Position numbers and translations under genes: made by a program
The notes under the pieces: generated by a model
The model's database searches: none
Told to the model about the DNA's origin: nothing
The model's input: only the letters and a program-made list of their open reading frames with translations
Source of the DNA: Candidatus Micrarchaeota archaeon
GTDB taxonomy: Archaea > Micrarchaeota > Micrarchaeia > Anstonellales > JAGGXE01
NCBI GenBank assembly: GCA_021163225.1
Contig: JAGGXE010000001.1
Span: forward strand, 1-50,993
DNA: 50,993 bases
Reading direction: 5' to 3'
Shown here: positions 4,528-42,918 of the stretch, piece by piece
How positions within the stretch are numbered: position 1 is the first letter of the stretch
Layout of the letters: every line of letters begins with the position of its first letter

Positions 4528-7383
4528 CTATTCTATCTTTATGGCGGGTTTGAGCGGTAACGCATTCTTTGCCTTCGGGTCCGAAGCGTCTCCCTCTTTC
4601 ATTACAACGATTTCTGCATCAAACCTCTCTTTAAAGTATTCTGATGCGTTTGTCAGGATTTCTTCTTCGTTCAGTTCGGGCATGTCCCTATACTCAGGTA
4701 ACATCTTGAAGACTTTCTTGATCAAGGTAGCGATCTCTCTCTTATGTTCTTCGAACCGTCTATCGGTCATCAATGCATCCATTATCGATTTCATGTTGTA
4801 TTCGACTGTTAACGCTTTTCTGACCATCTCTCTCTTCCAAGGTGCCGAAACAAAGAACGTGATCTTCTTTGGTTCCTTCTTTATCACCTTGAGTATATGG
4901 TTTACATCTTCCGTGACCTTCTTTATGTACCATTCAGAATCCTTTTCTATGAATTCTGTCTTTTCTATAGGAGGAAGTTTTGTCTGACAGACCAACGTAG
5001 ATTCACCTATTACGGTGTGCCATATCTCCTCCGCAAGGTGCGGTGTGAAAGGCGACATCAGTTGAACTAATGTTTTTATGGTATTTCTAAGCACCTCTCT
5101 GTTCCTACCCTTTCTTTTCAGATACCATTGTATATCTGACAGTATTCGGTAGTATACGATATCGGTTGCATGTTTAAGTTCAAAACTGTCGATATCTTTC
5201 TCTATCTGCCATAGATATGCTTTTATTCTATGTTCCAGCCAGTCATCTATGTGCGTTCGTGCATCGGTAAGTTGTTCGCTCAGTTCCCACAACCGTTTCA
5301 CTTCGTTGTACATCCATTCTAATCTTTCCCGGTATTCGAAGACCTGCTTCTCATCAAACTCTACATCTACGTACGGTTTTGCTATGTTCGCATAGAACAG
5401 CCGCATCGGGTCTACCCCGTATCTCTCAGCCATGCCCGGAACCGGTTGCGCCCCGCCCTTACTCTTCGATAATTTCTCTTTCGTATGCGAGATTATCCAA
5501 TAGTTTACAAAGATTCCTCTCGGCCATAACTCTTTCGGTAGGATTGCTACATGGTTCTTAACGAACGGAGGGAAATGTACCGTGGTATGTTCTTTACCTC
5601 CGAGGTTTATGTCCAACGGATACCAGTACCATACGTTTTTCTTTATTTCCTCTACCAACGATACGTCCATCCCGTTCTCTTCAGCAACGGATTTCGCATC
5701 ACCTTTACCTAAGAACACATAATCAAAGAATTTGAGTGTTAACTGTTCAGGGGTGAACCTATCTTTGTACATGGATACCAGATAGAATATTGGGTAGAGT
5801 GTAGAATCCGAAATCGCTTCAATAGTATACCTTTCATCAAACGGGAACTTTGTACCTAGCCATCTTCCCATTCGTGCACAAGGTCTTTCTTTAAACCAAC
5901 GTAATGCATCGGGTAAGAATTCGTAGTACTCTTGAGGTTTAACATTCATCTGTTTACCCCATTCGATCGCCCTTTCATTCAGCCAGTCTTTGCTATAATC
6001 GATGAACCACTGGTGATCCACCTTTTTTATGAATACGCGCCCGCCACATCTACATATCACTTCTTCTGAAAGGTCGTAGAAGATATCTGCCAACCCTTCT
6101 TTGATAAGTTCTTGTTTAACGAGTTCTTTTGCCTTTTCCACAGGCATACCAGCGTATTTACCCGCGGTTTCTCTCATCACACCTTTGTAATAACCCGATT
6201 TGTATATCTCTTTTTTAGCATCTTCAAGTTTGGGGTCTGTGGAACTTCTTATTCCCATTCTTTCACATATCTCTTTTGCAGGAAATTCGCCCCAGCCGGG
6301 TGTTTCTATTATCGGTATAGGTTGTATCTTCTGTACCTCTTCGCGGTTCAGTCCGTACTTTTTACATTCTTCCGGATGGTTTTGCAAGTCGTACAGACCC
6401 ATCCAATCGTGCGGCGCGTCGGAAGGTACAGAGGTCACGATACCAGAACCTACGTTCGGGTCGCAGAATTTTGAGGGGAGTACGATTATCTCTCTCATTA
6501 TACCGGGGGCCATGACGTATTTGCCTATCAAATCGCTTCCTTTTACAGTACCTTTTATTTCAACGCGGTCTTTCTGGTATTTTATCTTTTCAGCAAACGG
6601 TTTGCTACCGACCCATGTTTCCCCTTCAACATCCATCACAACATACTCTTCATCAGGGTCGACCCATAGATTGGTTTGGCCGAATACCGTCTCAGGTCTT
6701 AGTGTAGCGGCGATCAAGTACACAGTCCCGTAGTTATCGATATCCGTCCTGAACTTTAGTAGCGTGTATTCGATTTTTTCAGCATTTCCTCCTTTGCTGA
6801 CATCCGTCTCAGCAGGGTCTACGGAAACCGGTCCGCAGTTCTCACAATAGGTTGCATAGTATTCTTTCTGTATCAGCAGTCCCAGGTCCATCAGTTTGTG
6901 AAACTGCCATTCTATGAATTTGTTGTATATCCTATCGATTGTTGTAACATACGTTCTCTCATTGATCAGGATACCAAACCTTTTCATATCTCTTACGTAC
7001 AGCTTACCGAAATATCTTACGAAAGTCTCGGGGTCCGTGAGTTTTTTAATATCCTCTTCAGGCACGTTGTTCTCTCTCAGATAGTTGATATACTTTTCAT
7101 CACCTCTTGCAATAAGTTGCGCCTTTGCGATTACTCCGTTACCGGTGGCATGTATCCCTATGGGTAACATTGCATTGTATCCTGCAAGACGTTTGAACCG
7201 TGTTATCATGTCCGCATATGTATACCCTCTCATGTGTCCTGTGTGCAGGAACCCAGTCGGGTACGGATACGCAAAAACCATGTAGAATTTCTTTTTTCCT
7301 TCTTCCCTTACCGCTTCAGCAACCTTAGCCTTGTCCCATTCTGTTTGCCATCTCCTCTCTAATTCGTTCCAATCGATACTCAT
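4528..7383 (-). CDS. leuS: Leucyl-tRNA synthetase (archaeal type)
   Basis: YPYPTGFLHTGHMRGY (HIGH region), KLSKSKGG (KMSKS) and large editing-domain insert. The ORF track extends to 7434. I place the start at MSIDWNELERRW (ATG at 7383). Confidence 0.93.
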   Translation of the reverse strand: MSIDWNELERRWQTEWDKAKVAEAVREEGKKKFYMVFAYPYPTGFLHTGHMRGYTYADMITRFKRLAGYNAMLPIGIHATGNGVIAKAQLIARGDEKYINYLRENNVPEEDIKKLTDPETFVRYFGKLYVRDMKRFGILINERTYVTTIDRIYNKFIEWQFHKLMDLGLLIQKEYYATYCENCGPVSVDPAETDVSKGGNAEKIEYTLLKFRTDIDNYGTVYLIAATLRPETVFGQTNLWVDPDEEYVVMDVEGETWVGSKPFAEKIKYQKDRVEIKGTVKGSDLIGKYVMAPGIMREIIVLPSKFCDPNVGSGIVTSVPSDAPHDWMGLYDLQNHPEECKKYGLNREEVQKIQPIPIIETPGWGEFPAKEICERMGIRSSTDPKLEDAKKEIYKSGYYKGVMRETAGKYAGMPVEKAKELVKQELIKEGLADIFYDLSEEVICRCGGRVFIKKVDHQWFIDYSKDWLNERAIEWGKQMNVKPQEYYEFLPDALRWFKERPCARMGRWLGTKFPFDERYTIEAISDSTLYPIFYLVSMYKDRFTPEQLTLKFFDYVFLGKGDAKSVAEENGMDVSLVEEIKKNVWYWYPLDINLGGKEHTTVHFPPFVKNHVAILPKELWPRGIFVNYWIISHTKEKLSKSKGGAQPVPGMAERYGVDPMRLFYANIAKPYVDVEFDEKQVFEYRERLEWMYNEVKRLWELSEQLTDARTHIDDWLEHRIKAYLWQIEKDIDSFELKHATDIVYYRILSDIQWYLKRKGRNREVLRNTIKTLVQLMSPFTPHLAEEIWHTVIGESTLVCQTKLPPIEKTEFIEKDSEWYIKKVTEDVNHILKVIKKEPKKITFFVSAPWKREMVRKALTVEYNMKSIMDALMTDRRFEEHKREIATLIKKVFKMLPEYRDMPELNEEEILTNASEYFKERFDAEIVVMKEGDASDPKAKNALPLKPAIKIE

Positions 7384-7576
7384 TCGGATACACCCCTGTA
7401 TTTCCGAAGATGTTCTCTTTAAGCCGACAACCACTCCTTCTAAGAGATCAAACGATATAGTGCGCGAATCTTTATATTTATTACTCTGACTTGTTTTTAC
7501 AGACCTTCTAAACTACCGTCATGTATAAAAATTTAACATTGGTAATTAAAGAACGCATATTCTTATAACAGCGGAG

Positions 7577-10500
7577 GTGTTCGATGTGTTGAATCACAAA
7601 GAGATCGAGGAAAATATATTGAAATTCTGGCGTGAAAAAAGGATACGTGAGAAGTTGAATGAGAAACACAAGGATAAACCGTTCTACTTCTGTGAGGGAC
7701 CTCCTTATGCAACAGGTGACCCGCATCCCGGAACAGTGTGGAATCATGTTATCAAGGATATGTATTTAAGGTATATCAGGATGAAAGGCTACTACGTACA
7801 TGACAGAGCAGGTTTTGATACTCACGGCTTACCTATCGAAGTTAAAGTCGAAAAAGAGGAGGGAGTAACATCTAAAGGTGACATCGAAGAGAAAATAGGT
7901 GTTAAAACGTTCATCGATAAATGTAAACGGTTCGCTACCAGGTACATCAAAAGTATGAGTGAAAAGTTTGAACGGTTCGGTGTTTGGCTGGATTTCGAAA
8001 ACCATTATGCAACTTATAGAAACTCCTATATGGAACAGGTTTGGCAGAATATAAAACGGGCCGATGATAAGGGATTGCTGTATGAGGGGAATTACGTAGT
8101 TCCCTATTGTCCCCGTTGTCAAACAACTTTGGCTAACTATGAACTCGAATATTTTGAAAAAGAGGACCCGAGCATCTTTGTCAAATTCAAACTTAAGGAC
8201 AAACCGAACGAATACTTGGTCATATGGACCACTACACCATGGACGTTGATATCCAACCTTGCCGTGATGGTTCATCCGTCTGCTACGTACGTTAGAGTTA
8301 AGGTCGACGATGAGGTATGGATCGTTGCGAAAGACCGATTGGATTACGTGTTGGAGAAGACTGGAAAAAGTGGTGTGATCATCGATGAGATGAGCGGTAA
8401 ACGACTCGACGGGTTGAGATACGAGCATCCTCTTCAGGAGTTTATAGGAAAAACCTACGATAGACACGTAGTTCTCAGTGATGAATACGTTACAATGGAG
8501 GAGGGTTCAGGTCTGGTTCATTGTGCGCCAGGTCACGGTCCAGAGGATTATGAGATAGGAAAACGGTACGACCTCGAGATTTATTCTCCGGTTACTAAAG
8601 AGGGCACGTTTGACGAAACCGCGGGCAAATACGCCGGTTTGGAGGTTTTGAAAACCAACGATATCGTGATAGAGGACCTTGAGAAGAAAGGCGCTCTTCT
8701 CTTTGCTGAGACGATTAAGCATAGGTATATGCGTTGTTGGCGTTGTAAGACACCTCTCATATACATAAACATGAAACAGTGGTTCATAAAAGTAGGAGAT
8801 ATCAAAGATAAGATGTTGGAAAACATAGCAAATACTGTATGGGTGCCAGATTACCTACGTAAACGAATGAGTGATTTTGTAGGCGAGACCTCTAATTGGT
8901 GCATTTCGCGACAGAGGTACTGGGGGATACCCTTACCGATATGGAGATGTGAACGTTGTGGTGCTGTAAAGGTTGTAGGTTCCTTTAAAGAACTTCCGAA
9001 AAAACTTGATGACTACCATAGACCGTACATCGATGAGGTGACATTGAAGTGCGATTCATGCGGAGGTGAGATGCGTAGGGTTCCGGATGTGTTGGATGTT
9101 TGGGTCGATTCCGGGAATGCGGTTTGGGCTTCTTTGACCGATGATGAAAGAAAGAGGTATGAAGTCGCAGATTTTATAGTTGAGGGACGTGATCAGGTGC
9201 GTGGATGGTTCTATTCTCTGTTGGCTTTCGGTACGATCCATTACGACAGGGCTCCGTACAAGACAGTTATGCAGCACGGTATGTTCCTTGCTGAAGATGG
9301 TAACACGATGAGTAAGAGCCTCGGCAACTTTGTACCGGTTGAGAAGATAATCGAACAGTACGGTGCAGACGCCTTTAGGTTGTGGGTTATGAAAAACGTT
9401 CCTTGGGAAGATGTAAAATTCAGTTGGAACGAACTCAAGGAGGCGAAAGCGTCCCTTAATATACTGGCTAATATAGGTACGTTTATCGACAGGTTTGTGG
9501 ATGAACGGATAGACTATTCCGATGAAGACCTGTTGATCGAAGACAGATGGATAATATCCAAGTTCAATTCAACACTGAAGAAGGCTACCGAAGCGATGGA
9601 CCAGTACAACTTCCACATTGCTACGAGAGTGTTGAAAGAGTTTGCAGAGGAAATGCTCAGCAGAAGGTACATAAAACTTGTCAAATCGAGGATAAAGGCG
9701 GATAAGAAGAAAGAGGTTGCATTATCGGTGCTCTTCGACGTATACTTCGATTTCTTGAAAGCCTTCGGTATAGTTGCTCCTTTCTTGAGCGAACACATCT
9801 ACCAAACAGTCTATAAAAAGAGGTTGAACGGTGAAGAATCTATATTTATGTACGATTGGCCGGAGTACGATACACTGAAGATAGACCCAAGCGTTGAACG
9901 GATGTTCGATGTTGCGGATCAGGTAGTGAGTACGGTCAACACCTTGAGACAGAAGGCAGGTATCAAACTCAGATGGCCTGTCGAAGAAATAATCTTTGTG
10001 CCTTTTGACAGTTTCTCCGAAGAAGCGGTCATGAAGTTTTCAGATGTGATCAGAGATATGGCTAACATTAAGGATGTTCGGATCGAATCGAAAGTTGATT
10101 CGCAGGTCAAGGTAACCTTGGACGAGGAGAAAATAAAAGAGTTGTACAAGGATCTTGCAGACGATATATTCAAAGAAGTGTATAACGTGGATCCGATCGA
10201 ACTTCAGAAGACCGTGGGATTAGGTAAACTATTCAAGGGGACCGGTTACGAACTCAAACCCGAGTTGGTGGTTGTCGAAGAGAGTTATCCCGGATACGAG
10301 GTAGGGTTGTGCGATTACGGAAAGGTTTATCTCAAATCAACGTTATCTGAAGAGTTGTTCGAAGAGGGTATGCTGCGTGAGGTAATACGAAGGATACAGA
10401 TGATGAGAAAAGAAAACAGGTTGGTCGAATCGGACACTATCGATGTGGTTATCAATGCATCGGACAAATTGGCTAACATCATCGAAAAGCATACTGATGA

Positions 10501-16942: not shown

Positions 16943-18088
16943 ATGCGTATAGCATTCTTTACAGATACGTACCATCCGAACGTTGATGGCGTGGTTATGA
17001 TGATGGACGCGCTCCGCGCGTCCATCGAACGGTTGGGCCACGAAGTGTTCATCTTTGCCCCGGGTACCGGTGAAGATATCAGAAAGAATACCGATGACCA
17101 TGTTTATTATTTCAAAGGGGTCAAGTTCCCGCCGTATCCTTCGTACAAATTGGCTCTCTGGCCGTTTTCCTCTTTGGCTATGGTCAAACAGTTAAATATA
17201 GATGTCATCCATTCTCACGGAGTTGCTACAACCAGTTTGGCTGCCTTGTTAGCAGGGAAGTTGTACGATATTCCCACAGTAGCCACCTATCATACAAAGG
17301 TTACTGATGCTGTACATTACGTTACCGGAGATCCGTGCATAGAACAGTTCCTCCGTAGAGCGATATGGGCATATCTTGAACGCATGTATTCACAGTACGA
17401 CCTTGTTACATGTCCCAGCAAATACATCCAGAGATTACTCAAAGCACACGGGATCGAATCGGTCGTGATACCGAACGGGATAGACATCTCACGTTTCAGA
17501 CCTACTACTGTCGACAAGAGAATATTCGGTTTGGATGATGAGAGTAAGGTCATTCTTCATGTCGGTCGCATTGTTAAAGAGAAGAATCTCGACATCATTA
17601 TCAGATCTTTACCTCTCATTCCCTCCGAATACTCTCTGGTAATCATAGGTCACGGACCGGCCGAATCTTATTATCGAAAACTGACTGAGAAATACCGTGT
17701 GAGTGACAGGGTTAAGTTTTTGGGATTCGTCCCGAACAACGAACTCCCTGCATACTATTCATCGGCCGATGTCTTCGTGTTTGCATCGAGGTTCGATACA
17801 CAAGGTTTGGTAGCTCTGGAGGCATTGGCTTGCGGTACACCTATCGCCGGGTTGAAAGGTATAGCGATAGAGGAGATAGTTCGACCAGGGCTTACCGGTT
17901 ACCTATTCGATGAGGACCCCCTTTCCGTTCGTAAAGCGATCGTATCTGCTGCGGAGTTGAAACGTCGTCACACCAGTGAACAAATCCGTTACACCGCGCT
18001 TGCTTACTCCAGAGAACGCATGACTGAAAGTTTTCTTTACATATACCGACAACTCATTGAGAAGAAAAAGAGATCCACAAAACGATAA
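16943..18088 (+). CDS. Glycosyltransferase, GT4/GT1-type (group 1)
   Basis: MRIAFFTDTYHPNVDGVV at the N-terminus, and a C-terminal region SADVFVFASRFDTQGLVALEALACGTPIAG typical of GT-B group 1 enzymes. Confidence 0.85.
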   Translation: MRIAFFTDTYHPNVDGVVMMMDALRASIERLGHEVFIFAPGTGEDIRKNTDDHVYYFKGVKFPPYPSYKLALWPFSSLAMVKQLNIDVIHSHGVATTSLAALLAGKLYDIPTVATYHTKVTDAVHYVTGDPCIEQFLRRAIWAYLERMYSQYDLVTCPSKYIQRLLKAHGIESVVIPNGIDISRFRPTTVDKRIFGLDDESKVILHVGRIVKEKNLDIIIRSLPLIPSEYSLVIIGHGPAESYYRKLTEKYRVSDRVKFLGFVPNNELPAYYSSADVFVFASRFDTQGLVALEALACGTPIAGLKGIAIEEIVRPGLTGYLFDEDPLSVRKAIVSAAELKRRHTSEQIRYTALAYSRERMTESFLYIYRQLIEKKKRSTKR

Positions 18089-18100
18089 CGATAGGTCGCA

Positions 18101-20608
18101 CTACGAACCTTTTATCGATTCTATGAACGCACCCATCTTTGTTATCGGTAGGAGTACTATGGTCCCGCGTTCGACCTCCAGTTTGAAGAGAACGGCCAAC
18201 GTATCCGGCACGGTTATCCTCTCGATAAACTTGTTCATCGTCGATTCGGAATCGAATACGATGAGCGTCTTTCCTTTATCCACTGTTTTTAATGCGCGTT
18301 TGATTATATTATAATCACCGTCAAAGATATGGACATACATCTTTCTACCGGAAACTGTGATCTCTGTATCACAGAGTTTTGATTCCTTAAGCGGTGTAAA
18401 TTTTACGACGTTGTCCACGAAGATATCTCTAAGCATTCTGAATAACACTAGATATAAACCGGATTTTCCGGATTCCTCGATCCATTTTGTCGGAAGATAA
18501 TAGTAATACCTCTCGTATACCAATCCCTTTGCGACGAGTTCGTCCAGAAGTATCTCCAGGTTGTAATCGCTGATATGGATGGGTTTACCGTCGTACGAAA
18601 GTTTCAGGAATCCCTTTTTGATCTCCTCAAGTTTAAGTGGCATATGTTTCCATGAATAGTCTTTGTTCACTTCGTCAAATATTTTTAACACATCATCTAT
18701 TTTGACAGATACCGTCGTAGATTTGACTACTGGAAAATCAGGTATATCTAAACCGTATATGATTTCCTCTCTAGGTTTTATGATTACGAACGCGAACACC
18801 AACGAAATGATCGTTACGATTGCCAAGAACGTATAGAACGGGTTGCTCAGTATAGGGTCTAACGGATTAGTTTCTCTGTAAGTTATTGTTTTCTTGATAT
18901 GGTATTTTTTGTTGAACACGAAATCAAAGGTGTGCTCACCTCCGCTAAGGTACAGGTCTTTCAGTTCGATGTACTGCACATTTCTGTACTCGCCAACTTT
19001 TTCACCGTCCACGTAAATCTCGACTTCATTAACTTTAACGCGTTCTCCATATTCGTCGCGAATGTCGAACGTTAACCTTCCTTTAACCCATTGAAGCGTC
19101 ATCGGTTTAACATCTACATCAACAATCTTCAGCATACCTTTTGCATAAATCCTATTCTCATCCCTTACAACCAGTTCGTATTCTCCGGGTGGGAGGTCAG
19201 TGTTGACGGTTATGATTTGAGGTGTTAAAGATGAAGAATAGGCTTTTGGTATCGGTGATTCGAACAACACCCGTCCCGCGGAAATAATCTGTATGTACGG
19301 GAATATCTCCACAGATTCGTTCTCCTGATAATAGATCCTTACGAAGATCGGCAGTCCGGTTATGTAGGAAGGATAAACTGTTTCCGGGAACACTATCCTG
19401 CCTTTAGCATCCTTTGTAATCTTCAGTACTTTAACTATCGATTTAACACCTTTAGACTCGCTTACAGATTGACCGATAAGTTTCAAGTATACCTGTTCTG
19501 TAGTAGGAATCGGTGCTGAAAAGAGGTCCACTGCCCCAGACTGATTAGTATAAGTGTAGGATTTCTGCGATAACGGTGCATGCCATCCGCTCTCATAGAT
19601 GAACCGTGCAACGTCCTGCGCGGCCACAGAGCCGTTATCCCATCCCGAATCCAAATACTCTGGAAAAACTGTCAGATAACCGTTGCCTATACGTATTACT
19701 GATATGAAACCGTAAGCCACATTCGTATCAGTGTTCTTGTATTCCATTCGGTATACTGGTTCATGCATATGCATCGGTTTATCAACAGTGAGACGTTTAT
19801 CTCTCGGTAGCGATTCGCTCAATGTATACCTGAAGCCGAGGAGATTTTTCGGTACAACGATGTTACCACTGGCATCTATCGCCTCGGAGAAAGGATACCC
19901 GATGTATATCACTACGATAGACCTGTTCATGATGTCTATCAGATTGGTTTCACCGTCCAACATTTCTACAGGTATCCTACCGCTAGGTATTATCAGTATC
20001 GAATCGTCTGGGATGATATCAACATTGTTCAGGCTTACCTCTGTTACACGGTACCCAACATCTCTTAACATCCGTTTCAACTCATCCTTGAATGATCTGA
20101 GATTTGTCGATTGAGGAGAATAAACCTGAGAGTTCAGGATATACACTTCATTACTATCCACGGTATCGTACGGGTAGATGAAGAAACCTGTTTCTGTCCC
20201 GTTTGTGTTGTAAGATAAATATGTGTGTACAACATCGCTCCGTATCGCAGACCCTTCTTTAAGTCTATCGTATGCAAGTATCTCTCCAGAGTATACAGTG
20301 TACTGGAATTTTGGTGCAATCTTAGGAGCGGCGGCGGAGCCGCCGCTTATACTGAGTAATCCTATCCCTATCCATACCCCTAACAGACCTAGAACGAGCA
20401 GGATCGCTACCAATTTTAAAGGTACACGAATTCGTGGTATGATCTTTTTCGGTGACTCACTCTCAACAGTGTACTTTCTTTTGATGTTGTATTTGTATTC
20501 GTTTTTGAACTTCTTCCGAATGGAAAACGAAAATTTTTTCTTTTTTATTCTACTGTCTAAAGATATCCTTCTTGTAGTTCTCTTCTTCGGTTTGGTTTCT
20601 TTAGCCAT
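18101..20608 (-). CDS. Large two-TM envelope protein (operon member 6), unknown function
   Basis: 835 aa. The order is a basic N-terminal tail, TM1 (LKLVAILLVLGLLGVWIGIGLL), a roughly 500-aa predicted external region, TM2 (FYTFLAIVTIISLVFAFVII) and a roughly 220-aa C-terminal domain. It is 27 nt downstream of the preceding gene. Confidence 0.7.
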   Translation of the reverse strand: MAKETKPKKRTTRRISLDSRIKKKKFSFSIRKKFKNEYKYNIKRKYTVESESPKKIIPRIRVPLKLVAILLVLGLLGVWIGIGLLSISGGSAAAPKIAPKFQYTVYSGEILAYDRLKEGSAIRSDVVHTYLSYNTNGTETGFFIYPYDTVDSNEVYILNSQVYSPQSTNLRSFKDELKRMLRDVGYRVTEVSLNNVDIIPDDSILIIPSGRIPVEMLDGETNLIDIMNRSIVVIYIGYPFSEAIDASGNIVVPKNLLGFRYTLSESLPRDKRLTVDKPMHMHEPVYRMEYKNTDTNVAYGFISVIRIGNGYLTVFPEYLDSGWDNGSVAAQDVARFIYESGWHAPLSQKSYTYTNQSGAVDLFSAPIPTTEQVYLKLIGQSVSESKGVKSIVKVLKITKDAKGRIVFPETVYPSYITGLPIFVRIYYQENESVEIFPYIQIISAGRVLFESPIPKAYSSSLTPQIITVNTDLPPGEYELVVRDENRIYAKGMLKIVDVDVKPMTLQWVKGRLTFDIRDEYGERVKVNEVEIYVDGEKVGEYRNVQYIELKDLYLSGGEHTFDFVFNKKYHIKKTITYRETNPLDPILSNPFYTFLAIVTIISLVFAFVIIKPREEIIYGLDIPDFPVVKSTTVSVKIDDVLKIFDEVNKDYSWKHMPLKLEEIKKGFLKLSYDGKPIHISDYNLEILLDELVAKGLVYERYYYYLPTKWIEESGKSGLYLVLFRMLRDIFVDNVVKFTPLKESKLCDTEITVSGRKMYVHIFDGDYNIIKRALKTVDKGKTLIVFDSESTMNKFIERITVPDTLAVLFKLEVERGTIVLLPITKMGAFIESIKGS

Positions 20609-20635
20609 TTTATTACCCAGTACGTGTTTTCAGGA

Positions 20636-21403
20636 TTATTTGAGTTCCAGATAACCGTTGGTAACAAGATAGTTCAGCACCTGTTCGACACGCGCTTCGG
20701 AAACACCGTAAACCTTTGCAAACTCCGTTACATCGATAGAACCGTCGTGTTCCGCGATCCATTCCTGTATCTTAACCGCCAACGTTTTGTCGGATATCTT
20801 CTTCAATGCATTGAGTGCGGCCGTAACATCCTCAAGCTTACGTTTGAGGTTGTAATTCTCGCGGGATAGCATTTCATTCGATTCTTTTAATCGTGCGATC
20901 TCCTTTTTGAGTTGTTCCAACTCTTCCTTTAACATATCGTGTTGTGCAAAGAGTTTATCATAATCCGATGACACGTATTCGGTCATGCTTTTGATCATAT
21001 CCTCCAGGAACATGTACAGTTGTTTTAACGGAACTTCGTAATCGTCCCCGACAAGGGTCAACAGGTTCAGAAAATATGAGGCGATGCTAAGTCTACGTCT
21101 CTTAGGACTCATCCCGGGAACGATACTGTATATTACGCGGACTCGGTCTCTTAAGAAATAGATTATACTGAACAGGTACGGTCTCTTTTTGATATCCCGT
21201 GTTTCGATGTTGATGACTGCAACACCTTCCCTGTACGGAATTACATCCAGATGCGAAACCGTTGATAACTTATTCTTCAGGTTTTCGATAGATGTTTTTA
21301 GGTGTCCTTCCAGTTCGAACCCGTCGACCCGTGGTTCGTTAACTATTTGCGGTTTCTTGCCCGTCTTTCCTTGTTTTTTGATCCTTATCTTCAAACCCAT
21401 CAC
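20636..21403 (-). CDS. Coiled-coil protein with C-terminal winged-helix-like domain (operon member 5)
   Basis: 255 aa. The heptad-rich segment is LKEELEQLKKEIARLKESNEMLSRENYNLKRKLEDV. The C-terminus IDVTEFAKVYGVSEARVEQVLNYLVTNGYLELK resembles a wHTH. Confidence 0.65.
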   Translation of the reverse strand: MMGLKIRIKKQGKTGKKPQIVNEPRVDGFELEGHLKTSIENLKNKLSTVSHLDVIPYREGVAVINIETRDIKKRPYLFSIIYFLRDRVRVIYSIVPGMSPKRRRLSIASYFLNLLTLVGDDYEVPLKQLYMFLEDMIKSMTEYVSSDYDKLFAQHDMLKEELEQLKKEIARLKESNEMLSRENYNLKRKLEDVTAALNALKKISDKTLAVKIQEWIAEHDGSIDVTEFAKVYGVSEARVEQVLNYLVTNGYLELK

Positions 21404-21411
21404 CTATCTAT

Positions 21412-21855
21412 TCATTTCTTTTTGACCTTTCTTTTTCTCGTTTTCTTGACACCGGTCCGTTTTCTACGACTCTTCAGCCATTCGTCGAGCGTCATAGTAG
21501 TCTTAGGTATGTACCGTGTGATAAACACGATCCCTATCATAAGTGCAAAGATTGCTATCAGCATTATCAGTGTGGTCATCATCCTTACGATATTCACAGC
21601 GCCCGTAATCGCGAACAAGATTCCCATAAAAATGACGGCTGCCAACCCCAACAATCCCCATGTTATCATGTTTCTTTCGTAACTTTTTCTCCTCTTAACA
21701 TACTCCTCCCAACATTCCCTACATACAACAAGCTTATACCCTTTAGCTATTCCCAACTTTTCTTTTATCCTCCTGATAGTTCTTATCACCAGATCCTCCT
21801 TTATCGGGACACCTTCCCTTTCTTTTTCACAGATTATACATATCTTTTTACCCAT
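21412..21855 (-). CDS. Zinc-ribbon plus two-TM small membrane protein (operon member 4)
   Basis: 147 aa with CIICE..CRECW, two hydrophobic helices and a highly basic C-terminal tail. Confidence 0.6.
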   Translation of the reverse strand: MGKKICIICEKEREGVPIKEDLVIRTIRRIKEKLGIAKGYKLVVCRECWEEYVKRRKSYERNMITWGLLGLAAVIFMGILFAITGAVNIVRMMTTLIMLIAIFALMIGIVFITRYIPKTTMTLDEWLKSRRKRTGVKKTRKRKVKKK

Positions 21856-21864
21856 GCGATCACC

Positions 21865-23439
21865 TTATTCCTCAAGAATTACCTGGACGATATCCTTGTC
21901 GCGGATACCCATCTTCTTCACGTCCGCTTTGGAGAACACAGTAACTATCGTGCTGTCATCGAGTCCCAGGTCTTTCAAGAAGGATGTGATGTTTCTTCTT
22001 ACAACACCGTACTTTTCAAGCAACAGTACGAACGATACGATATCCATATGCCTGTTCTTCTGTTCGAACAGTTTACATATCTCTTCTATATGCATATCAT
22101 CCAACCCGTAACTTCTCATCTTCTTACGAAAATCTTCCTTATTGAAATAAGCGGTCCTTGCCATCTTACCCCCTCTCAACTCCTCTTCAGAATATATACT
22201 TTCCATATCCAGGAAATATTCATACAACGGTTCCTCACCGATTACCCTATCTAACAGGAACGTGTTGGAGAACGTAGTAGCCTTTGCAGGTACGAGGTTA
22301 ATCGCGCACTGTCCAACACCGAACTTCATTATCTCATTCCGGATGTAATCGCTGAAGTTCAAAGAGTTTTGCAGATAGTCCAGATACTTTTCGAATTTGA
22401 CTCTGAATATGAACGTTGAACCGACGTTACTGAATATTGCTTCGTTAATATCGACCGGGTGCTGACTCGCTACGATCAAACCGAAGTTGTACTTCCTCCC
22501 TTCCCTCACGATCATAACTGCATCGCTGTTATCGTCCTTAGCCACTTTCCATGCCTCGTCAAGAACGATCAGAAGTCTGAGCCCTTTCTTAGCCGCCCAT
22601 CCGGTTGCACGCATCTTTTCCTTTATGAATTGAAGGATGGACAGTGCGGCAAGCGCACGGAACACTTCATCAGGTAACCCGGATAGGTCTATGTCTACCA
22701 ACCCTGACGATGTTATTTCATCCAGGTTTATCGTGCTCGGTGCGGCAAAAAAATCTTCACCCGGACGCGTGAACCTTTTGATTCTGTATATTGCGTTTTC
22801 CAACTCTGCAGGGAATTCGTAGGTTCCGCTTTTTAACTGTCTCTCCAGAATACGTTGCACATCTTTTAATGTGGGCGGTTCCAACGGTCTGCCCAACGAG
22901 TCCACCTGGTTACGTTTGTCCAGTTTAAAGTTTGCTTCCTTATACGCCTTTTCGATCGCCATCTCAGTAAGCCTCTTCTGTTCGGGATAATTCTCTATGT
23001 CCGTCAGTATCGCAAGTGTTCGCATGACTTGTTTGATCCTGTCCAACGGTTTCATCCCGCCAAGGTCCAACAGATTTATCGATGCTCCCTTACCCAGCGC
23101 CACTACCTTGCCTCCTGCTTGTTTAACCCAGTCCCTGTATTCACCTGCCCAATCTATAATAAGCGCGTTAGTGTTCCAGATAAAAGCAGCCCTGGTTAAG
23201 AACGTCTTTATAAAATAACTTTTACCAGCACCCGTAATACCGCAGACCGCGATATGCGGATTGGTCAGTTTTTCATAAGTCCAATTGAAAGGAATGTTGA
23301 ATATCTTGCTGAATCCTATAAATATCGAATTGGCTGGGTCATCCATAAGGAATTCGGGTGGAGGTTCGGGAGGGTAGACAAAGATGTTCCGTTTAGCCAA
23401 TGTGACATTGGACACTTCACATATCCTTAACCTTCCCAT
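21865..23439 (-). CDS. VirB4/TraC-like (AAA_10 / DUF87-type) P-loop ATPase (operon member 3)
   Basis: Walker A GITGAGKS (23218-23241), ALIIDWAGEY, Walker B LLIVLDEAWK, REGRKYNFGLIVASQHP. It has no TM segment. An extra C-terminal roughly 110 aa carries a duplicated GLDD motif. Confidence 0.8.
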   Translation of the reverse strand: MGRLRICEVSNVTLAKRNIFVYPPEPPPEFLMDDPANSIFIGFSKIFNIPFNWTYEKLTNPHIAVCGITGAGKSYFIKTFLTRAAFIWNTNALIIDWAGEYRDWVKQAGGKVVALGKGASINLLDLGGMKPLDRIKQVMRTLAILTDIENYPEQKRLTEMAIEKAYKEANFKLDKRNQVDSLGRPLEPPTLKDVQRILERQLKSGTYEFPAELENAIYRIKRFTRPGEDFFAAPSTINLDEITSSGLVDIDLSGLPDEVFRALAALSILQFIKEKMRATGWAAKKGLRLLIVLDEAWKVAKDDNSDAVMIVREGRKYNFGLIVASQHPVDINEAIFSNVGSTFIFRVKFEKYLDYLQNSLNFSDYIRNEIMKFGVGQCAINLVPAKATTFSNTFLLDRVIGEEPLYEYFLDMESIYSEEELRGGKMARTAYFNKEDFRKKMRSYGLDDMHIEEICKLFEQKNRHMDIVSFVLLLEKYGVVRRNITSFLKDLGLDDSTIVTVFSKADVKKMGIRDKDIVQVILEE

Positions 23440-23448
23440 CTCTCCACC

Positions 23449-24261
23449 TCATTCAACCTGTTGTTTGAGGAGTTCTATTGATGGAGGTATCGTATACTCC
23501 CATTCGAAACATCTCAACATCTCTTCTCCTGACAGAATTTCCACCTCGCAATTCAACGCATTGGATATAGTAGCCCTCAGCTCTTTGGCCTGCGCACGTG
23601 CAGCCGCGATGGCCGCTTCTTTTGTTACACCAATAGCGGTTGTCATTACGTATCCCACCATCGACATCGGTTTATACCCCTTTGAGAGTTTATCTATCTC
23701 TGCATCCCACATAGCAACCTCCCTCTCGTACCTGTCAAGTTTTAGGATATCCGGTTCCGGTTTCTCACGTTCGCGTTGGAGTTTGAGTTGCGCTTCAGCA
23801 CGTTTGGTTTCGATCTTCATCCTGTAATCGCTTATATCTTTCACATAGACCAGCATAGCAAACTTTGTAACGTATTTAACCGAAGATATAGCTCTCTCAA
23901 AATATTCTGAATAAACGATGTTTTCTTCCAACGTCTTTTCGGATGCGGATTCATATATCCGTACCGCGAGAAACATCGATGCATAATATACATTGTTGAT
24001 CTTCCTAACTATCACATCCTGGGAGGGAGGTATTTCGTACCCAGTATCTGTTAGGATTACTGTGCGTGTCATCTTTGTTATCATCGGGACTATAAAGTAT
24101 CCGTATTTGTACAGGATGTAGGCGATTATCGCACCACCTACCCCTACTATCAAACCCAAGACAGCGATAGCGCCACCTTTTATGAACGTACCCAACGCGG
24201 CCAATAACGCTATGCCGATGCACACATACGCAAACTTGCTTGGACTTAGATCTATAGGCAT
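23449..24261 (-). CDS. Membrane protein with two N-terminal TM helices and a coiled-coil domain (operon member 2)
   Basis: 270 aa. Hydrophobic helices are FAYVCIGIALLAALGTFI and AIAVLGLIVGVGGAIIAYILY. A charged helical region (KRAEAQLKLQREREKPEPDILKLDRYEREVAMWDAEIDKL) follows. It lies 9 nt upstream of the ATPase gene. Confidence 0.65.
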   Translation of the reverse strand: MPIDLSPSKFAYVCIGIALLAALGTFIKGGAIAVLGLIVGVGGAIIAYILYKYGYFIVPMITKMTRTVILTDTGYEIPPSQDVIVRKINNVYYASMFLAVRIYESASEKTLEENIVYSEYFERAISSVKYVTKFAMLVYVKDISDYRMKIETKRAEAQLKLQREREKPEPDILKLDRYEREVAMWDAEIDKLSKGYKPMSMVGYVMTTAIGVTKEAAIAAARAQAKELRATISNALNCEVEILSGEEMLRCFEWEYTIPPSIELLKQQVE

Positions 24262-24339
24262 CCATGACCACCGTTCTTATTTATTAACGTTTTAACAATG
24301 AGAGTGAAGTTTTTAAAACTTCTTCTTGACTGCACGGGT

Positions 24340-26361
24340 TTATTGTTTTTGTGTCCATAGGTTATCTGACACCCGGTTCTCCCTTATGTAGACCTCAGGG
24401 TCCGGACCATTGATCATCCTTTCCTTGGCACCGGGTCGGTCTGCCACTGCTAAATAATATATGATCTGTTCCCGTCCAGTCCTTTGGTCTTTGACTGTTC
24501 TTTTCCTGACGTACAAAGGGTCTCTTCTTATATCACCGATATATCCGAAATCCACTAAACATACGTTTCCGTCTTCATCTATGGTGAGTATACCATGATG
24601 GTTGCTCTCTGAGTGAGGTGATTTTCGCCAGAAGATATAACTCCCAACTTCTTCGTAGGATACTTTGCTATCGTCCTCTGGATTCAGCCGTACTTCCCGA
24701 ATCTCCCGTGCGTTGATGTACCTGCCGCTTTCATGTGTCGGGCTTTGTACATCTGTCATATATCTAAACAACTCGTTCGGGTCGCTCACATATTTCAACT
24801 GTTCGGGTTGTTTACCTTGATAAAAATCGTAAACGATAGAATCAGATAACCTGGTCACCACCGAAGCGAAGTCATAGCAATCTACATGATGTACACCGTA
24901 TTTCCAGCCGTAGTTATACGGTTCTTTCCAGTCGGCCAGGTCGGATATCACATAAGCCCAGAAAGCACGGTTCGCTTTTACGAGAGTGTTCATCCTTGCA
25001 GTTATGTTCATAGCGGGCGTGTACCTGTTTAAGAACTTCTCTTGTATGTTCGCCCACACCTTCGCATACCTGATCGCGCGTTCTCTCGTCTCAGGGTTTA
25101 ACCCTGTTTTCATTATGAAGAGTATGACCGTGCGGTTGACGTTCTGTAGGGTTCTGTTATAGCCCAGGTCATAACCGTCTCTCTTGCTTAACGAATAAGA
25201 TGGGAAGGTATCGCTTATGCTATCTATGGCTATCAGAACGTTTGTCAAATCTTCAGGGTTCGGTCCACCCAAATGGTCCTTCGAGATACCGTATTCAATA
25301 ACCTCTTCTATCAGACCTTCATCGATGATCGAGCCGGGCAGAACAGTTTTCACATAGGATAGGAGAAATGCTAAAGGTTTTATGCGTTCCATATCCTCCT
25401 TCTTCACCGCACGGTTTTCGAATACATGATCGCGAATTTCCAGGTAATTACCCACCATTTCAATCCGTTTATCAAAGGATAATTTGTCCATCATCCTTTT
25501 GAAGTCGGGTCCGAGGTCCTCTTCCAGTAACGTCATTATTTCACCGTAATACTTATCTATCTCATAAGTTAGAAACTGTACTAATCTGTTGGAATCCTTT
25601 GTATCATATGCACCGAGCTGTCTGATTCCAAACTCTCGGATAGCCTTCTGCTCAATGTACCATATTTCGGCAGGGACAGGTTTCTTACTGGATAACCTTT
25701 CCTTAAAGTCGAGAAGGTCTTCGGTAAACTTCTTCATCGGGTTATCGACAGGGCTACCTGACAATCCTTCCAAAATACTGGCATACTTCATCAGATCAGA
25801 CAGTCGTTTTAACAGTTTGTCCGCTTTGTCTTTGTCGGTACATTCTTCATAGATATCAACACCTAACACATCAGTGATGGCTAACGCGATGTTCTCCGGT
25901 GTCGGTTCTTCATACGCCTTCTTAGGTATTATCTCGGATAATACCGGACGTTTAGAGATCAGATTATTCATAAACTCTTCGAAACAATCCGTCTTTGTTA
26001 ACTGGTAGTTGTCAACGATTGCCATCACACGACCGAAACCAGGTCTTTCGATATTGGTAGTTGTGAAGAAGGTGACAAGTTGATCGGTTATGAAGGAATC
26101 CTTATACCCTTCCGATTTAATATAATCTAACACAACGTCCCTTATCCTATCCCTTTGGTTTATATCTACATCAATACCTGATTTGATTAAAAGACCGATG
26201 GTTAACCCGTACAACATCTTTGCAGTGGTCAGTTGTGAGGATGTTAACCCACCAACCTCATTAAACCTTTTTTCCGTATCATCCAGTATTGATCGAACAG
26301 TACCGTCATCAAGGTCAAAATACTTCTTTATATCCGAATGATAAAGCTCACGATACTTCAT
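24340..26361 (-). CDS. Large soluble protein with C-terminal papain-like (Cys/His) signature (operon member 1)
   Basis: The ORF track gives 24340..26469. I prefer the ATG at 26361 (MKYRELYH), because an A+T-rich TATA-like stretch and GATAGGTG lie just upstream. The C-terminus contains HHVDCYDFASVV and, about 90 residues later, NHHGILTIDEDGNVCLVDFGY. Confidence 0.65.
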   Translation of the reverse strand: MKYRELYHSDIKKYFDLDDGTVRSILDDTEKRFNEVGGLTSSQLTTAKMLYGLTIGLLIKSGIDVDINQRDRIRDVVLDYIKSEGYKDSFITDQLVTFFTTTNIERPGFGRVMAIVDNYQLTKTDCFEEFMNNLISKRPVLSEIIPKKAYEEPTPENIALAITDVLGVDIYEECTDKDKADKLLKRLSDLMKYASILEGLSGSPVDNPMKKFTEDLLDFKERLSSKKPVPAEIWYIEQKAIREFGIRQLGAYDTKDSNRLVQFLTYEIDKYYGEIMTLLEEDLGPDFKRMMDKLSFDKRIEMVGNYLEIRDHVFENRAVKKEDMERIKPLAFLLSYVKTVLPGSIIDEGLIEEVIEYGISKDHLGGPNPEDLTNVLIAIDSISDTFPSYSLSKRDGYDLGYNRTLQNVNRTVILFIMKTGLNPETRERAIRYAKVWANIQEKFLNRYTPAMNITARMNTLVKANRAFWAYVISDLADWKEPYNYGWKYGVHHVDCYDFASVVTRLSDSIVYDFYQGKQPEQLKYVSDPNELFRYMTDVQSPTHESGRYINAREIREVRLNPEDDSKVSYEEVGSYIFWRKSPHSESNHHGILTIDEDGNVCLVDFGYIGDIRRDPLYVRKRTVKDQRTGREQIIYYLAVADRPGAKERMINGPDPEVYIRENRVSDNLWTQKQ

Positions 26362-26490
26362 AAGAACACCTATCTCAGAGTTTACAAATAAAAAATGCAA
26401 ATAAAAATTTAAATCAATGTGTGCTTTCATCACCGGCCGGCCGTGTTCGAACCCAACCTTTTTTAACATCCGTAGTTATAGATAGGTCCT

Positions 26491-27120: not shown

Positions 27121-27564
27121 CTATTTCCTTTTCTTAACACGGAGCACCTTATATGCTGAGTAGATGAATATAAGCATAATGAGTCCGCCTATAGAGTACG
27201 CTATTTTCGGGTCGATAAGATTGTACTTTCTTTCGGATTCTTCCTGTTTCTGTATTAATCGATCTACTACTATGTATTTCGTTTTCAACTCCGTTCCGTA
27301 AACAACCTTTATACTGTAATTTCCCGGTTTATCTATAGTTTGTTGGTAGGACCATTCCTTACCCATAAGGACCTTACGATAATCGTACTGTGTGCCGTTG
27401 TAGAAAAAGTATACTTCAACGTTTTTGAGTTTCTCATCTTCTGAATGAACGGTGTAGACAATCGTGTTCGGAGGCGAAGCAGTCAATTTTACATCCACAT
27501 CTATCCCGTATACGCTCAAAATAACTAAGGTAGATATCAAAAGCATTGCCAATATCCTTTTCAT
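27121..27564 (-). CDS. Small secreted/anchored protein (signal peptide plus C-terminal TM)
   Basis: 147 aa. It has an N-terminal hydrophobic leader MKRILAMLLISTLVILSVYG, a beta-rich middle, and a C-terminal helix YSIGGLIMLIFIYSAY followed by KVLRVKKRK. Confidence 0.55.
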   Translation of the reverse strand: MKRILAMLLISTLVILSVYGIDVDVKLTASPPNTIVYTVHSEDEKLKNVEVYFFYNGTQYDYRKVLMGKEWSYQQTIDKPGNYSIKVVYGTELKTKYIVVDRLIQKQEESERKYNLIDPKIAYSIGGLIMLIFIYSAYKVLRVKKRK

Positions 27565-29762: not shown

Positions 29763-30740
29763 ATGAAAACGGTCAGACAGAAGAGAAATCAGTTCCAAAA
29801 ATCCGTTCAAAACGGTAAAGTGAGAAATAAGAGACCGTATCAGAGGTCTTACAGGAGAATCAGCGTGCCTCTTGTCGAAGACATCAGGGACCCGAAGTTG
29901 TTGAGGTTTGATGCGCATGTGCATACGACCGTGTCGGACGGATTGTTAAGACCTAAGGACATTCCTAAGATACTCAACTATCCGAGAAACCATCTCGATT
30001 ACATTGCAGTTACCGACCATGAATGTGCCGCATACTACGATGATGTAAACATCATCAACGGTATCGAAGTGGTTGCACGGTTCGCTGATAGAAAAAGGAG
30101 GTATTACATCCATCTCACAGGACTCGGAATACAGAAGAAGGATATCCAGGGTTACATAAAATTCTATGATCATAAACGGAACGAGTTCTACCATGAGGTG
30201 ATAGACCATTTGAGGTACAAGATATACATCGATGAAATGGATTTCAAGAGTTTGAATAGATTGACTCTACCACAGGGGATATGGAAGATCGCCGAGTTCA
30301 TCGTGAAGGGTTTACCCGAATCGGTTCAGCGGTTTTCAATCGAAAGAGTACATAACAGCATACTGAGTAGGTTTGAGGATCAATTCTACGGGGCGGTTTG
30401 GCCGGTTGAGGATTTTGTTCATGTTATCCATCTCTCCGGCGGTAAGGTAATGTTTGCTCATCCCGGTGTTTACAATTTTGCGGGGTACGATGCAAAACGT
30501 GTTGCCAACATATTGTTCGATATGGGTGTTGACGGCATTGAAATCGCGCATCCCGATTATTCGGTTAAAGATGTAATATACTATGCAAGTATCGCAAAGA
30601 AGAGGAAGAGGTTAATCGTTATGGGTAGTGATTTTCACGGCTCTGCTTCTCCCAGGATGAACCTGTATCGCGAATACACTGCCAGGTTGTCGGACATGGT
30701 TCATTTAATACGCTCCGCTCTGAAGCATGTAAAATCATAA
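29763..30740 (+). CDS. PHP-domain metal-dependent phosphoesterase
   Basis: FDAHVHTTVSDG, AVTDHE, FAHPG and GSDFHG motifs, with a basic N-terminal extension. Confidence 0.75.
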   Translation: MKTVRQKRNQFQKSVQNGKVRNKRPYQRSYRRISVPLVEDIRDPKLLRFDAHVHTTVSDGLLRPKDIPKILNYPRNHLDYIAVTDHECAAYYDDVNIINGIEVVARFADRKRRYYIHLTGLGIQKKDIQGYIKFYDHKRNEFYHEVIDHLRYKIYIDEMDFKSLNRLTLPQGIWKIAEFIVKGLPESVQRFSIERVHNSILSRFEDQFYGAVWPVEDFVHVIHLSGGKVMFAHPGVYNFAGYDAKRVANILFDMGVDGIEIAHPDYSVKDVIYYASIAKKRKRLIVMGSDFHGSASPRMNLYREYTARLSDMVHLIRSALKHVKS

Positions 30741-42779: not shown

Positions 42780-42801
42780 CACCCCGCAAAACACCGGAAA
42801 A

Positions 42802-42892: not shown

Positions 42893-42918
42893 GTCAGAAT
42901 CTAGCAAAAGAATTAATA

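Follow-up and report, generated by a model that had tools for sequence, protein, structure and literature searches.

We analysed one contig of 50,993 nucleotides (nt; hereafter the window) from a metagenome-assembled genome (MAG) of Candidatus Micrarchaeota, and describe a gene cluster in it that is built around a P-loop ATPase. Six co-directional open reading frames (ORFs) on the minus strand, labelled g1 to g6 in transcription order, are separated by intergenic gaps of 78, 9, 9, 8 and 27 nt, as computed from their coordinates. Five of these genes, g2–g6 (18101–24261), form a unit that is conserved in at least 80 species of Micrarchaeota, which are tiny symbiotic archaea; the unit probably represents the membrane core of a hitherto undescribed machine that resembles secretion or DNA-transfer systems. 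The existing annotation calls all five proteins only 'ATP-binding protein' or 'hypothetical'. The genes of the cluster and the features next to them are as follows.

24340..26361, minus strand: g1, soluble orphan protein of 673 amino acids (aa); the ORF is open to 26469
24262..24339, minus strand: spacer upstream of g2, 78 nt, AT-rich; probable promoter of g2–g6
23449..24261, minus strand: g2, 270 aa, membrane anchor
21865..23439, minus strand: g3, 524 aa, P-loop ATPase of the FtsK–HerA superfamily, VirB4/HerA assemblage
21412..21855, minus strand: g4, 147 aa, CxxC zinc-ribbon-like domain and transmembrane (TM) hairpin
20636..21403, minus strand: g5, about 255 aa, cytoplasmic, coiled coil and winged helix
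18101..20608, minus strand: g6, 835 aa, bitopic envelope protein
16943..18088, plus strand: GT4-family glycosyltransferase (Pfam Glycos_transf_1 and Glyco_transf_4), convergent with g6

Conservation of a five-gene unit

When one genome from each GTDB species was searched for the ATPase, 180 relatives were returned, and the best 80 loci, all from Micrarchaeota-type MAGs, were analysed. Each locus consists of the ATPase match with 10 kb of flank on either side, and the co-occurrence counts given here refer to that span; phylum-wide presence is judged from the 180 matching species genomes, with no denominator of genomes scanned that lacked a match. Comparison of the window proteins with these loci (tblastn) found g2, g3, g4, g5 and g6 collinear and on the same strand in 66–78 of the 80, depending on the gene, and the missing cases are contig ends. 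Because the order is identical in every one of the 80 loci in which the contig is long enough, its conservation is far beyond chance. The matches to the individual genes were distributed as follows.

g2: 72–75 of 80 loci, 47–68% identity to the window protein (median 58%), always directly upstream of the ATPase
g3: 80 of 80 loci, 62–76% identity (median 65%)
g4: 78 of 80 loci, 27–55% identity, directly after the ATPase
g5: 78 of 80 loci, 33–53% identity
g6: 66 of 80 loci, the rest being contig ends, 25–36% identity (22–36% by best tblastn segment)
g1: 0 of 80 loci

The neighbouring NMD3, DUF2070 and GT4 proteins of the same genomes reach median identities of only 34–36%, compared with 65% for g3 and 58% for g2. 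Upstream of g2 the genes differ from genome to genome (adenylosuccinate lyase, GT4 and GT2 glycosyltransferases, AAA proteins, GINS and TFE), and therefore the module is a constant element within varying housekeeping contexts; at about 65 loci the flanks likewise consist of housekeeping genes that differ around an unchanged module. Among these neighbours, adenylosuccinate lyase (purB) is the gene immediately before g2, in the same orientation, at 17 loci and is found within four genes at 25 (for example, locus L073, 7771–9078, and locus L079, 7838–9136), and genes for phosphoribosyl pyrophosphate (PRPP) synthase, AMP phosphorylase, aspartate transcarbamoylase (ATCase) and Nudix proteins also recur around the module. 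Such nucleotide-salvage neighbours fit nucleic-acid uptake; in genomes so small, their recurrence may be coincidence.

An earlier note on this DNA had read all six genes as one operon, with g1 as a papain-like hydrolase component of the system. Its strand and spacing agree with the coordinates; the conserved unit, however, comprises five genes rather than six, because none of the 80 loci has a g1 homologue next to its ATPase. Conservation of the neighbourhood in relatives, which the same note had named as a test of its proposal, is seen for g2–g6 and not for g1. A possible boundary is visible in the sequence itself: the 78-nt AT-rich spacer between g1 and g2 contains, on direct reading, the TATA-box-like stretches TTTTAAAAA and TTAATAAATA, and is the probable promoter of the unit. 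As these AT-rich boxes precede g2, we infer that g2–g6 probably form a transcription unit of their own.

The g1 ORF (24340–26469) encodes 709 aa from its first ATG; the NCBI start at M37 gives a 673-aa hypothetical protein and separates it from the divergently transcribed NMD3 gene by 129 nt of AT-rich sequence, and g1 has an AT-rich upstream region of its own. No TM helix is predicted in the protein, for which we found no family match in Pfam, NCBIfam, PADLOC, PHROG or PDB sequences, the libraries used in this study. A sub-threshold score for Pfam arylamine N-acetyltransferase (E = 0.15) is the sole trace of the papain-like signature, which is neither supported nor excluded. Scans of viral and metagenome contigs gave no g1 homologue, and the gene recurs only in one same-species MAG. 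It is a species-specific orphan that adjoins the conserved module and is not part of the system.

The cluster is set among housekeeping genes: fibrillarin, Nop5, RFC, DUF2070 and the GT4 glycosyltransferase on one side, and NMD3, ACT proteins, archaeosine tRNA-guanine transglycosylase and ribosomal proteins L1 and L10 on the other, with PolD, ArgRS and Sua5 further out. Its GC content (0.40–0.45) shows no break from that of the whole window (about 0.44). Family searches found no integrase, relaxase, coupling ATPase or replication gene among the window ORFs, no direct repeat brackets the cluster in the window, and the sole tRNA of the window lies 16 kb away. These observations bear out the earlier description of a chromosomal cluster without a compositional break, mobility genes or att repeats, in the genome of a reduced-genome archaeon, here a member of the DPANN lineage Micrarchaeota.

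The ATPase and its membrane partner

The motifs reported earlier for g3 were located at residues 67 (GITGAGKS), 289 (LLIVLDEAW, the Walker B motif) and 324 (ASQHP), in a protein that consists of a short N-terminal lead, a core and a helical C-terminal domain of around 100 aa, and that has no predicted TM helix. Residues K73, D294–E295, R312/R315 and Q326 are invariant among 60 orthologues, a pattern that shows, at the level of the catalytic residues, an intact VirB4/HerA-type ATPase. Two Pfam families pass their cutoffs in g3: DUF87 (57.2 bits) and AAA_10 (54.1 bits; cutoff 27.5). The best-scoring NCBIfam models are CedD (69.8 bits, cutoff 600) and CedB (65.8 bits, cutoff 700); below them come VirB4_plasma (NF045975; 58.4 bits, cutoff 590), CD1110 (NF045971; 54.1 bits, cutoff 325), TraC (44.2 bits, cutoff 567), two HerA models (NF040937, 43.6 bits, cutoff 800; NF040819, 41.5 bits, cutoff 970) and VirB4_CagE (TIGR00929; 35.7 bits, cutoff 643). 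The highest single profile score is that of the PADLOC antiphage HerA model (71.7 bits), and mad8 and DndH also match. Only 99 of 1.84 billion representative proteins match g3 at E ≤ 1e-30, and the whole Micrarchaeota clade of g3 forms one 50% cluster in this library.

Structure models were made for g2 and g3 with AlphaFold 2 (AF2) and compared with the PDB by Foldseek. The g3 model, built from 60 orthologues (predicted local distance difference test, pLDDT, 81), matches DndH-C (E 1.3e-16), the C-terminal domain of Thermoanaerobacter VirB4 (4ag5/4ag6; E 6e-16, query-normalized TM-score (TMq) 0.57, target-normalized TM-score (TMt) 0.78, root-mean-square deviation (rmsd) 3.7–3.8 Å) and HerA (E 1–2e-15, TMq 0.50, rmsd about 6 Å). 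The VirB4 domain is the best superposition among all matches, which also include numerous antiphage HerA complexes.

Walker A already lies at residue 67, which leaves no room for the N-terminal HAS-barrel of HerA, and g3 therefore lacks this domain. A canonical HerA with a barrel-like N-terminal region and an EEAH Walker B motif occurs separately in a related genome (locus L165, 1909–3411), and scores 33.6 bits against the g3 profile. These two points uphold the earlier view that g3 is not the canonical HerA; the argument from DEAW versus DEAH is indecisive, and the profiles of the two families score alike. The HerA gene of L165 follows one for a Lon/Mg-chelatase-like AAA protein. As this ATPase lies near a pilin gene, we considered whether it belonged to a separate type IV secretion system (T4SS) operon, and rejected that possibility: it is the canonical HerA just described, beside Cys-rich secreted proteins.

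Some g3 orthologues contain inteins, at the P-loop (GSGK/S...VHN/SYL in P0122, 1196 aa) or at Walker B (LF/C...SSN/CVVDEAW in P0121, 1026 aa), and ATPase matches of more than 1572 nt in loci L031, L034, L037, L038, L041, L045, L049, L051, L055, L064, L069, L072 and L074 fit the presence of inteins. Some Micrarchaeota/Anstonellales carry a second, divergent ATPase copy; examples are that of L088, described below, and that of L083 (8001–9878; same MAG as L045), a 625-aa protein encoded directly after PRPP synthase, with a short g5-like gene behind it.

Directly upstream of the ATPase, g2 has TM helices at residues 5–23 and 32–50. Its model (47 sequences, pLDDT 78) consists of a TM hairpin followed by a cytoplasmic alpha/beta domain of around 200 aa with a long helical hairpin. 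Profile searches found no match to g2 in Pfam, NCBIfam or PDB sequences. Of 350,542 PDB chains, the top fold match is 8rtd_g (753 residues), from the stalk–arches–inner-membrane complex of the R388 T4SS and presumed to be VirB4/TrwK; a second entry for the R388 inner-membrane complex, 7o41_B, ranks tenth. In distant relatives, g2 and the ATPase are one protein: fusions of about 690–910 aa (P0155, P0163, P0166, P0169, P0174 and P0211) begin with a TM hairpin at about 5–23 and 35–53, and their ATPase starts at around residue 300. Over its full length the g2 profile aligns with residues 2–254 of P0163, and it aligns with P0174 as well; the hhalign probability is 68%. Neither g2 nor the fusions match Pfam CagE_TrbE_VirB, the VirB4 N-terminal domain.

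The universal adjacency, the median identity of 58% and the fusions show that g2 is an obligatory partner of g3. Adjacency and fusion, together with the weak fold match, further suggest that g2 and g3 are the halves of a split protein of VirB3–VirB4 architecture, in which the domain of around 200 aa, as modelled, resembles the VirB4 N-terminal domain. We propose that g2 combines a VirB3-like hairpin with a VirB4-N-terminal-domain-like partner of the ATPase. The earlier note had placed g2 in the VirB3 position; a two-TM hairpin protein does lie upstream of the ATPase, but the additional domain makes g2 more than a VirB3 look-alike.

Partner proteins, pilins and distant variants

Prediction recovered the two TM helices each that were reported earlier for g2, g4 and g6, and placed none in g1, g3 or g5; paired CxxC motifs are present in g4, and the coiled coil and C-terminal winged helix of g5 were likewise recovered. 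In g4, an N-terminal zinc-ribbon-like domain, of which the first CxxC is conserved among orthologues and the second is variable, is followed by TM helices at 69–87 and 94–112 and a basic C-terminal tail. The g4 profile has no significant match among PDB sequences; we regard the protein as a candidate for a VirB3/PrgI-like subunit. In g5, which has no TM helix, a conserved N-terminal domain precedes the coiled coil, and the winged helix occupies the C terminus (residues ~200–254). The winged helix gives marginal matches to 2xvc (the winged helix of CdvB; E 0.0037), to NCBIfam CdvB (E 0.0089) and, faintly, to Pfam CdvB_HTH, and other g5 profile hits are to coiled-coil models and to EAP30/CdvB-type winged helices. 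The winged helix of CdvB, an archaeal ESCRT-III protein, binds CdvA.

The largest protein, g6, has a basic cytoplasmic N terminus, TM helices at 66–84 and 592–610, a fast-evolving ectodomain of around 500 aa between them and a well-conserved cytoplasmic C-terminal domain of around 215 aa. Its invariant residues cluster at 621–747, after the second TM helix. No Pfam or PADLOC family matches g6, nor does its profile have a significant match in the PDB; 46 family members scanned singly against Pfam gave only scattered weak Ig-like traces, and a word-indexed homology search with g6 found 3 proteins only.

Relatives of the module adjoin genes for small proteins with a signal peptide and two hydrophobic helices. 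These score 29.6 bits with Pfam T4SS_pilin (cutoff 26.6) and 26.0 bits with TrbC/VirB2, below its cutoff of 27.9; their best natural PDB match is the R388 pilin TrwL, and we refer to them as VirB2-type pilins. Their positions are as follows.

Directly upstream of g2: L012, L015, L029
About 1.2 kb upstream of g2: L016
Directly downstream of g6: L168
Within 10 kb of the module: L006, L017, L057, L066
After a g4-like paralogue: L101, L108

Physical linkage of the module to VirB2-type pilin genes is thus recurrent. In L108 the pilin genes come immediately after the g4-like paralogue; in L101 the paralogue was recognized by an ORF-level hidden Markov model (HMM) match. The earlier statement that no pilin is present is true of the window and does not extend to relatives. 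Pilin arrays were also seen in L121 (3094–5248), L155 (8266–10258), L096, L148, L150 and L153. Some pilins have long Cys-rich C-terminal extensions (L017, 18883–19497 and 20142–21485), and in L165 (3565–7427) pilin genes follow those for large Cys-rich secreted proteins. Clustering of the pilin-array neighbourhoods revealed no VirB6-like gene; only housekeeping genes and an Na+/H+ antiporter-like protein recur there.

Distant relatives of the ATPase (30–47% identity) keep g2-like and either g5-like or g6-like partners. The best documented are listed here.

L081: g2-like 274 bits, g5-like 119 bits, no g6-like gene
L088: g2-like 147 bits, g5-like 84 bits, no g6-like gene
L084: g2-like 200 bits, no g5-like gene, g6-like 64 bits (648 aa, after the ATPase)

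L083 also retains a g5-like gene (45 bits) with its ATPase. Three of the distant variants include a protein with six TM helices (6-TM). In L084 and L088 the order is pilin-like, 6-TM, g2-like and ATPase, and in L088 these form a compact set (6121–10074) with a 470-aa ATPase and a g5-like gene; in L085 the order is 6-TM, pilin-like and g2–ATPase fusion. The 6-TM proteins have no Pfam match and precede g2-like genes in distant variants only. This gene content is that of Ced, namely CedA1/A2, CedA and CedB (PMC11823120). With a pilin and a 6-TM protein in such variants, the earlier description of the system as 'minimal' is doubtful.

Readings of the module and their weight

Taken together, the evidence favours a chromosomal machine of the T4SS/Ced type, inherited vertically and equipped with a 'split VirB4', whose core in the cytoplasmic membrane is encoded by g2–g6, a reading to which we assign a probability of roughly 0.55. 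The earlier proposal of a T4SS- or Ced-like apparatus thereby gains support, from the VirB4-like fold of g3 and (weakly) of g2, from the g2–ATPase fusions and from pilins beside the module in relatives.

Like the Ced and Ted systems, the module is chromosomal and archaeal, lacks a relaxase and is centred on a membrane-associated VirB4/HerA-like ATPase, for which two Ced proteins provide the best-scoring NCBIfam profiles; its relatives adjoin VirB2-like pilins and, in distant variants, a 6-TM protein. In Ced of Sulfolobales, the VirB4 N-terminal domain is split between CedB and CedD (PMC11868833), and two-helix VirB2-like pilins belong to the Ced/Ted systems (PMC9905601). Unlike in Ced, g3 reaches only about 10% of the equivalog cutoffs (69.8 versus 600 and 65.8 versus 700), the N-terminal domain is encoded apart from the ATPase, by g2, the module has one ATPase instead of two, and no CedA-like polytopic protein lies near it in Micrarchaeota. 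Neither Ced nor Ted has a counterpart of g5 or g6, and the module appears to be constitutive and phylum-wide instead of part of a UV-induced regulon.

The VirB3–VirB4 complexes of bacteria (R388 TrwM–TrwK and MPF-FATA PrgI–PrgJ) provide a second parallel: the best superposition of g3 is with the C-terminal domain of VirB4 (4ag5), g2 has its best, weak, fold match in an R388 inner-membrane chain, and a two-TM hairpin protein is encoded directly upstream of the ATPase. VirB3–VirB4 fusions are known in bacteria, and g2–ATPase fusions are their likeness among relatives of the module; g4 has a weak PrgI match. Unlike bacterial T4SSs, however, the module lacks VirB6, VirB8, VirD4 and a relaxase, its g2 proteins and fusions show no CagE_TrbE_VirB domain, and g3 scores far below the TIGR00929 cutoff. 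The Patescibacteria (candidate phyla radiation, CPR) resemble Micrarchaeota: the cells are ultra-small and depend on hosts, their genomes are reduced, and the chromosome has kept a conjugation-type ATPase system. In these bacteria a chromosomal MPF-FATA-type T4SS is retained, its VirB2-like pilins are often encoded away from virB4, and it is essential for epibiotic growth in one species tested (PMC12102498). That system has a full-length VirB4 and recognizable PrgI, VirB6 and VirB8, and no VirB3–VirB4 fusions were found in it (PMC12102498); g5 and g6 are unrelated to its components. Archaeal HerA, which acts with NurA, Mre11 and Rad50 in end resection, belongs to the same superfamily as g3 (DUF87 above cutoff, Foldseek E of about 1e-15). 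It differs in its HAS-barrel and in its Walker B motif (EEAH in the HerA of L165, DEAW in g3); moreover, g3 has membrane partners, and no NurA, Mre11 or Rad50 is encoded near it in the window.

On this reading, the cluster is a split-VirB4, T4SS/Ced-related module with two partners, g5 and g6, that lack known ancestry. Literature searches (DPANN or Micrarchaeota with VirB4, CedB, DUF87, HerA or T4SS), incomplete in coverage, found no description of the cluster; the nearest published parallels are giant nanohaloarchaeal proteins with VirB4 domains (PMC10266531), the Patescibacteria T4SS (PMC12102498) and Ced/Ted (PMC9905601, PMC11823120, PMC11868833).

In a machine of the favoured type, g2 would supply in trans what VirB3 and the VirB4 N-terminal domain supply in bacteria, its TM hairpin tethering a g3 hexamer to the membrane, and g4 may contribute further VirB3/PrgI-like membrane helices. 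A cytoplasmic adaptor for substrate or DNA could be provided by g5. The conserved cytoplasmic C-terminal domain of g6 would dock on the complex, while its variable ectodomain would project through the S-layer towards a partner cell. Most likely, the ATPase would power the extraction and polymerization of VirB2-type pilins, and possibly it would also drive the passage of macromolecules along the pilin conduit; by analogy with Ced/Ted, the substrate may be DNA from host or neighbouring cells. More specifically, and only tentatively, g2–g6 may be the engine of a DPANN-specific, T4SS-derived cell-to-cell conduit, an archaeal counterpart of the Patescibacteria T4SS, in which the split VirB4 builds VirB2-like pili, g6 contacts the host, and host DNA or macromolecules are pulled in for nucleotide salvage. 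If this were true, the purB, PRPP-synthase, AMP-phosphorylase and Nudix neighbours would be more than coincidence.

Several observations weigh against a T4SS/Ced-like core. The sequence of g3 alone cannot separate VirB4/Ced from HerA: PADLOC HerA (71.7 bits), CedD (69.8 bits) and Pfam DUF87 (57.2 bits) give comparable scores, and g3 misses every NCBIfam equivalog cutoff widely, all scores being around one-tenth of the cutoff. The Foldseek E-values of DndH-C, VirB4 and HerA are nearly tied, within about one order of magnitude. The match of g2 to 8rtd_g is weak (E 0.038, probability 1.0, TMq 0.37, rmsd 4.1 Å over 166 columns), that of g4 to Pfam PrgI is sub-threshold (18.9 bits, cutoff 27; E 0.0023), and g5 and g6 have no known T4SS counterpart. 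Only 8 of the 80 ATPase-centred loci have a pilin gene no farther than 10 kb from the module, and most pilin genes form tandem arrays of 2–6 copies in unrelated housekeeping contexts. The 51-kb window contains no pilin, VirB6/CedA-like polytopic protein, coupling ATPase or relaxase, and no homologue of the 6-TM proteins lies within 10 kb of the module in the 80 loci. Finally, ATPase conservation as strong as this is more typical of housekeeping than of host interaction.

In the leading rival reading, the module is a housekeeping, membrane-anchored DNA translocase, an analogue of FtsK/SpoIIIE that segregates or clears the chromosome at division. In such a translocase g2 and g4 would be anchors, g5 would link the pump to the division machinery and g6 would be a septal envelope protein. 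We consider it unlikely, although a membrane DNA pump remains a serious alternative because of the extreme conservation, the winged-helix domains and the absence of a channel protein. The module is phylum-wide and apparently a single conserved locus in housekeeping neighbourhoods, g3 belongs to the FtsK–HerA superfamily of pumping ATPases and is far more conserved than neighbouring core genes, inteins at its P-loop and Walker B are typical of slow-evolving essential ATPases, and no relaxase or coupling protein is encoded in the window. The best match of the g5 winged helix to that of CdvB would suit a role at division; however, the g5 matches are marginal and generic. Pfam FtsK_SpoIIIE likewise scores below its cutoff (20.1 versus 24 bits) and covers only the P-loop (residues 46–86). 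Such a pump would not readily explain the fast-evolving ectodomain of g6, nor the pilins that abut the module in several genomes and accompany a 6-TM gene in distant variants.

Less likely still is an envelope machine that exports proteins or a surface structure without DNA, such as adhesins, S-layer-associated proteins or a cell–cell bridge, with the ATPase as unfoldase or assembly motor and g6 as an exported or anchoring protein. The three membrane proteins around the ATPase and the large variable ectodomain of g6 fit this idea. So does the GT4 glycosyltransferase, which in 40 of about 65 loci is encoded no more than four genes away from the module, and which is both the most frequent neighbour and the only recurrent one of non-housekeeping type; other glycosylation and flippase genes lie near the module in L001 and L012. 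Giant surface proteins of nanohaloarchaea carry VirB4-like ATPase domains (PMC10266531). The link to GT4 is positional only, however, no substrate or signal was identifiable, and the nearest-scoring families of the ATPase (Ced, VirB4, HerA and DndH) act on DNA or in pilus/DNA transfer.

We reject, as highly improbable, an anti-phage defence system of the Sir2–HerA or DUF4297–HerA kind, whose HerA hexamer serves as the scaffold for an effector. The antiphage HerA model gives the best single profile score, mad8 and DndH match too, and antiphage complexes abound among the fold matches; yet no partner matches a PADLOC effector model (g5 hits being coiled-coil only), there is no Sir2, DUF4297 or nuclease partner and no HAS-barrel, and, in contrast to a defence island, conservation is strictly vertical among housekeeping genes in 80 species, the defence-like island of the window lying elsewhere (47.9–50.9 kb). 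The remnant of an integrated conjugative plasmid or virus is rejected as scarcely credible: VirB4-like ATPases and VirB2-like pilins are hallmarks of conjugative elements, but the cluster shows neither mobility or replication genes nor att repeats nor a GC break, has no relatives in 2.9 million viral contigs and only matches of 21–26% identity on 72,556 plasmids, and stays constant while the housekeeping genes that flank it change from genome to genome.

Elsewhere in the window, a low-GC island at the contig end (47938–50706; GC 0.33–0.34 versus about 0.44) encodes a DUF4268 protein and an AIPR/Mrr-type abortive-infection protein, and is likely to be a defence islet (about 47.9–50.9 kb) unrelated to g2–g6. 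The tRNA of the window, tRNA Asn (GTT) at 42801–42893, was called at 93 nt, which is long for a tRNA; an intron may explain this length. Four window ORFs have no Pfam match: 26–1543 (505 aa), 1548–2957 (469 aa), 27121–27564 (147 aa, two TM helices) and 29763–30740 (325 aa).

For DPANN archaea, the source of missing building blocks and the physical link to hosts are an open question. Because the module is present in every locus examined, and because its ATPase and g2 have diverged less than the housekeeping genes around them, this five-gene ATPase membrane module is a concrete candidate for the machinery that connects DPANN cells to their hosts. For the evolution of T4SSs, it would represent a VirB4 whose membrane-anchored N-terminal part and catalytic part are separate genes, fused in relatives, a division that stands beside the CedB/CedD split of Crenarchaeota. 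Were the housekeeping reading true instead, a new membrane-bound DNA pump of archaea would have come to light, which would also be of interest.

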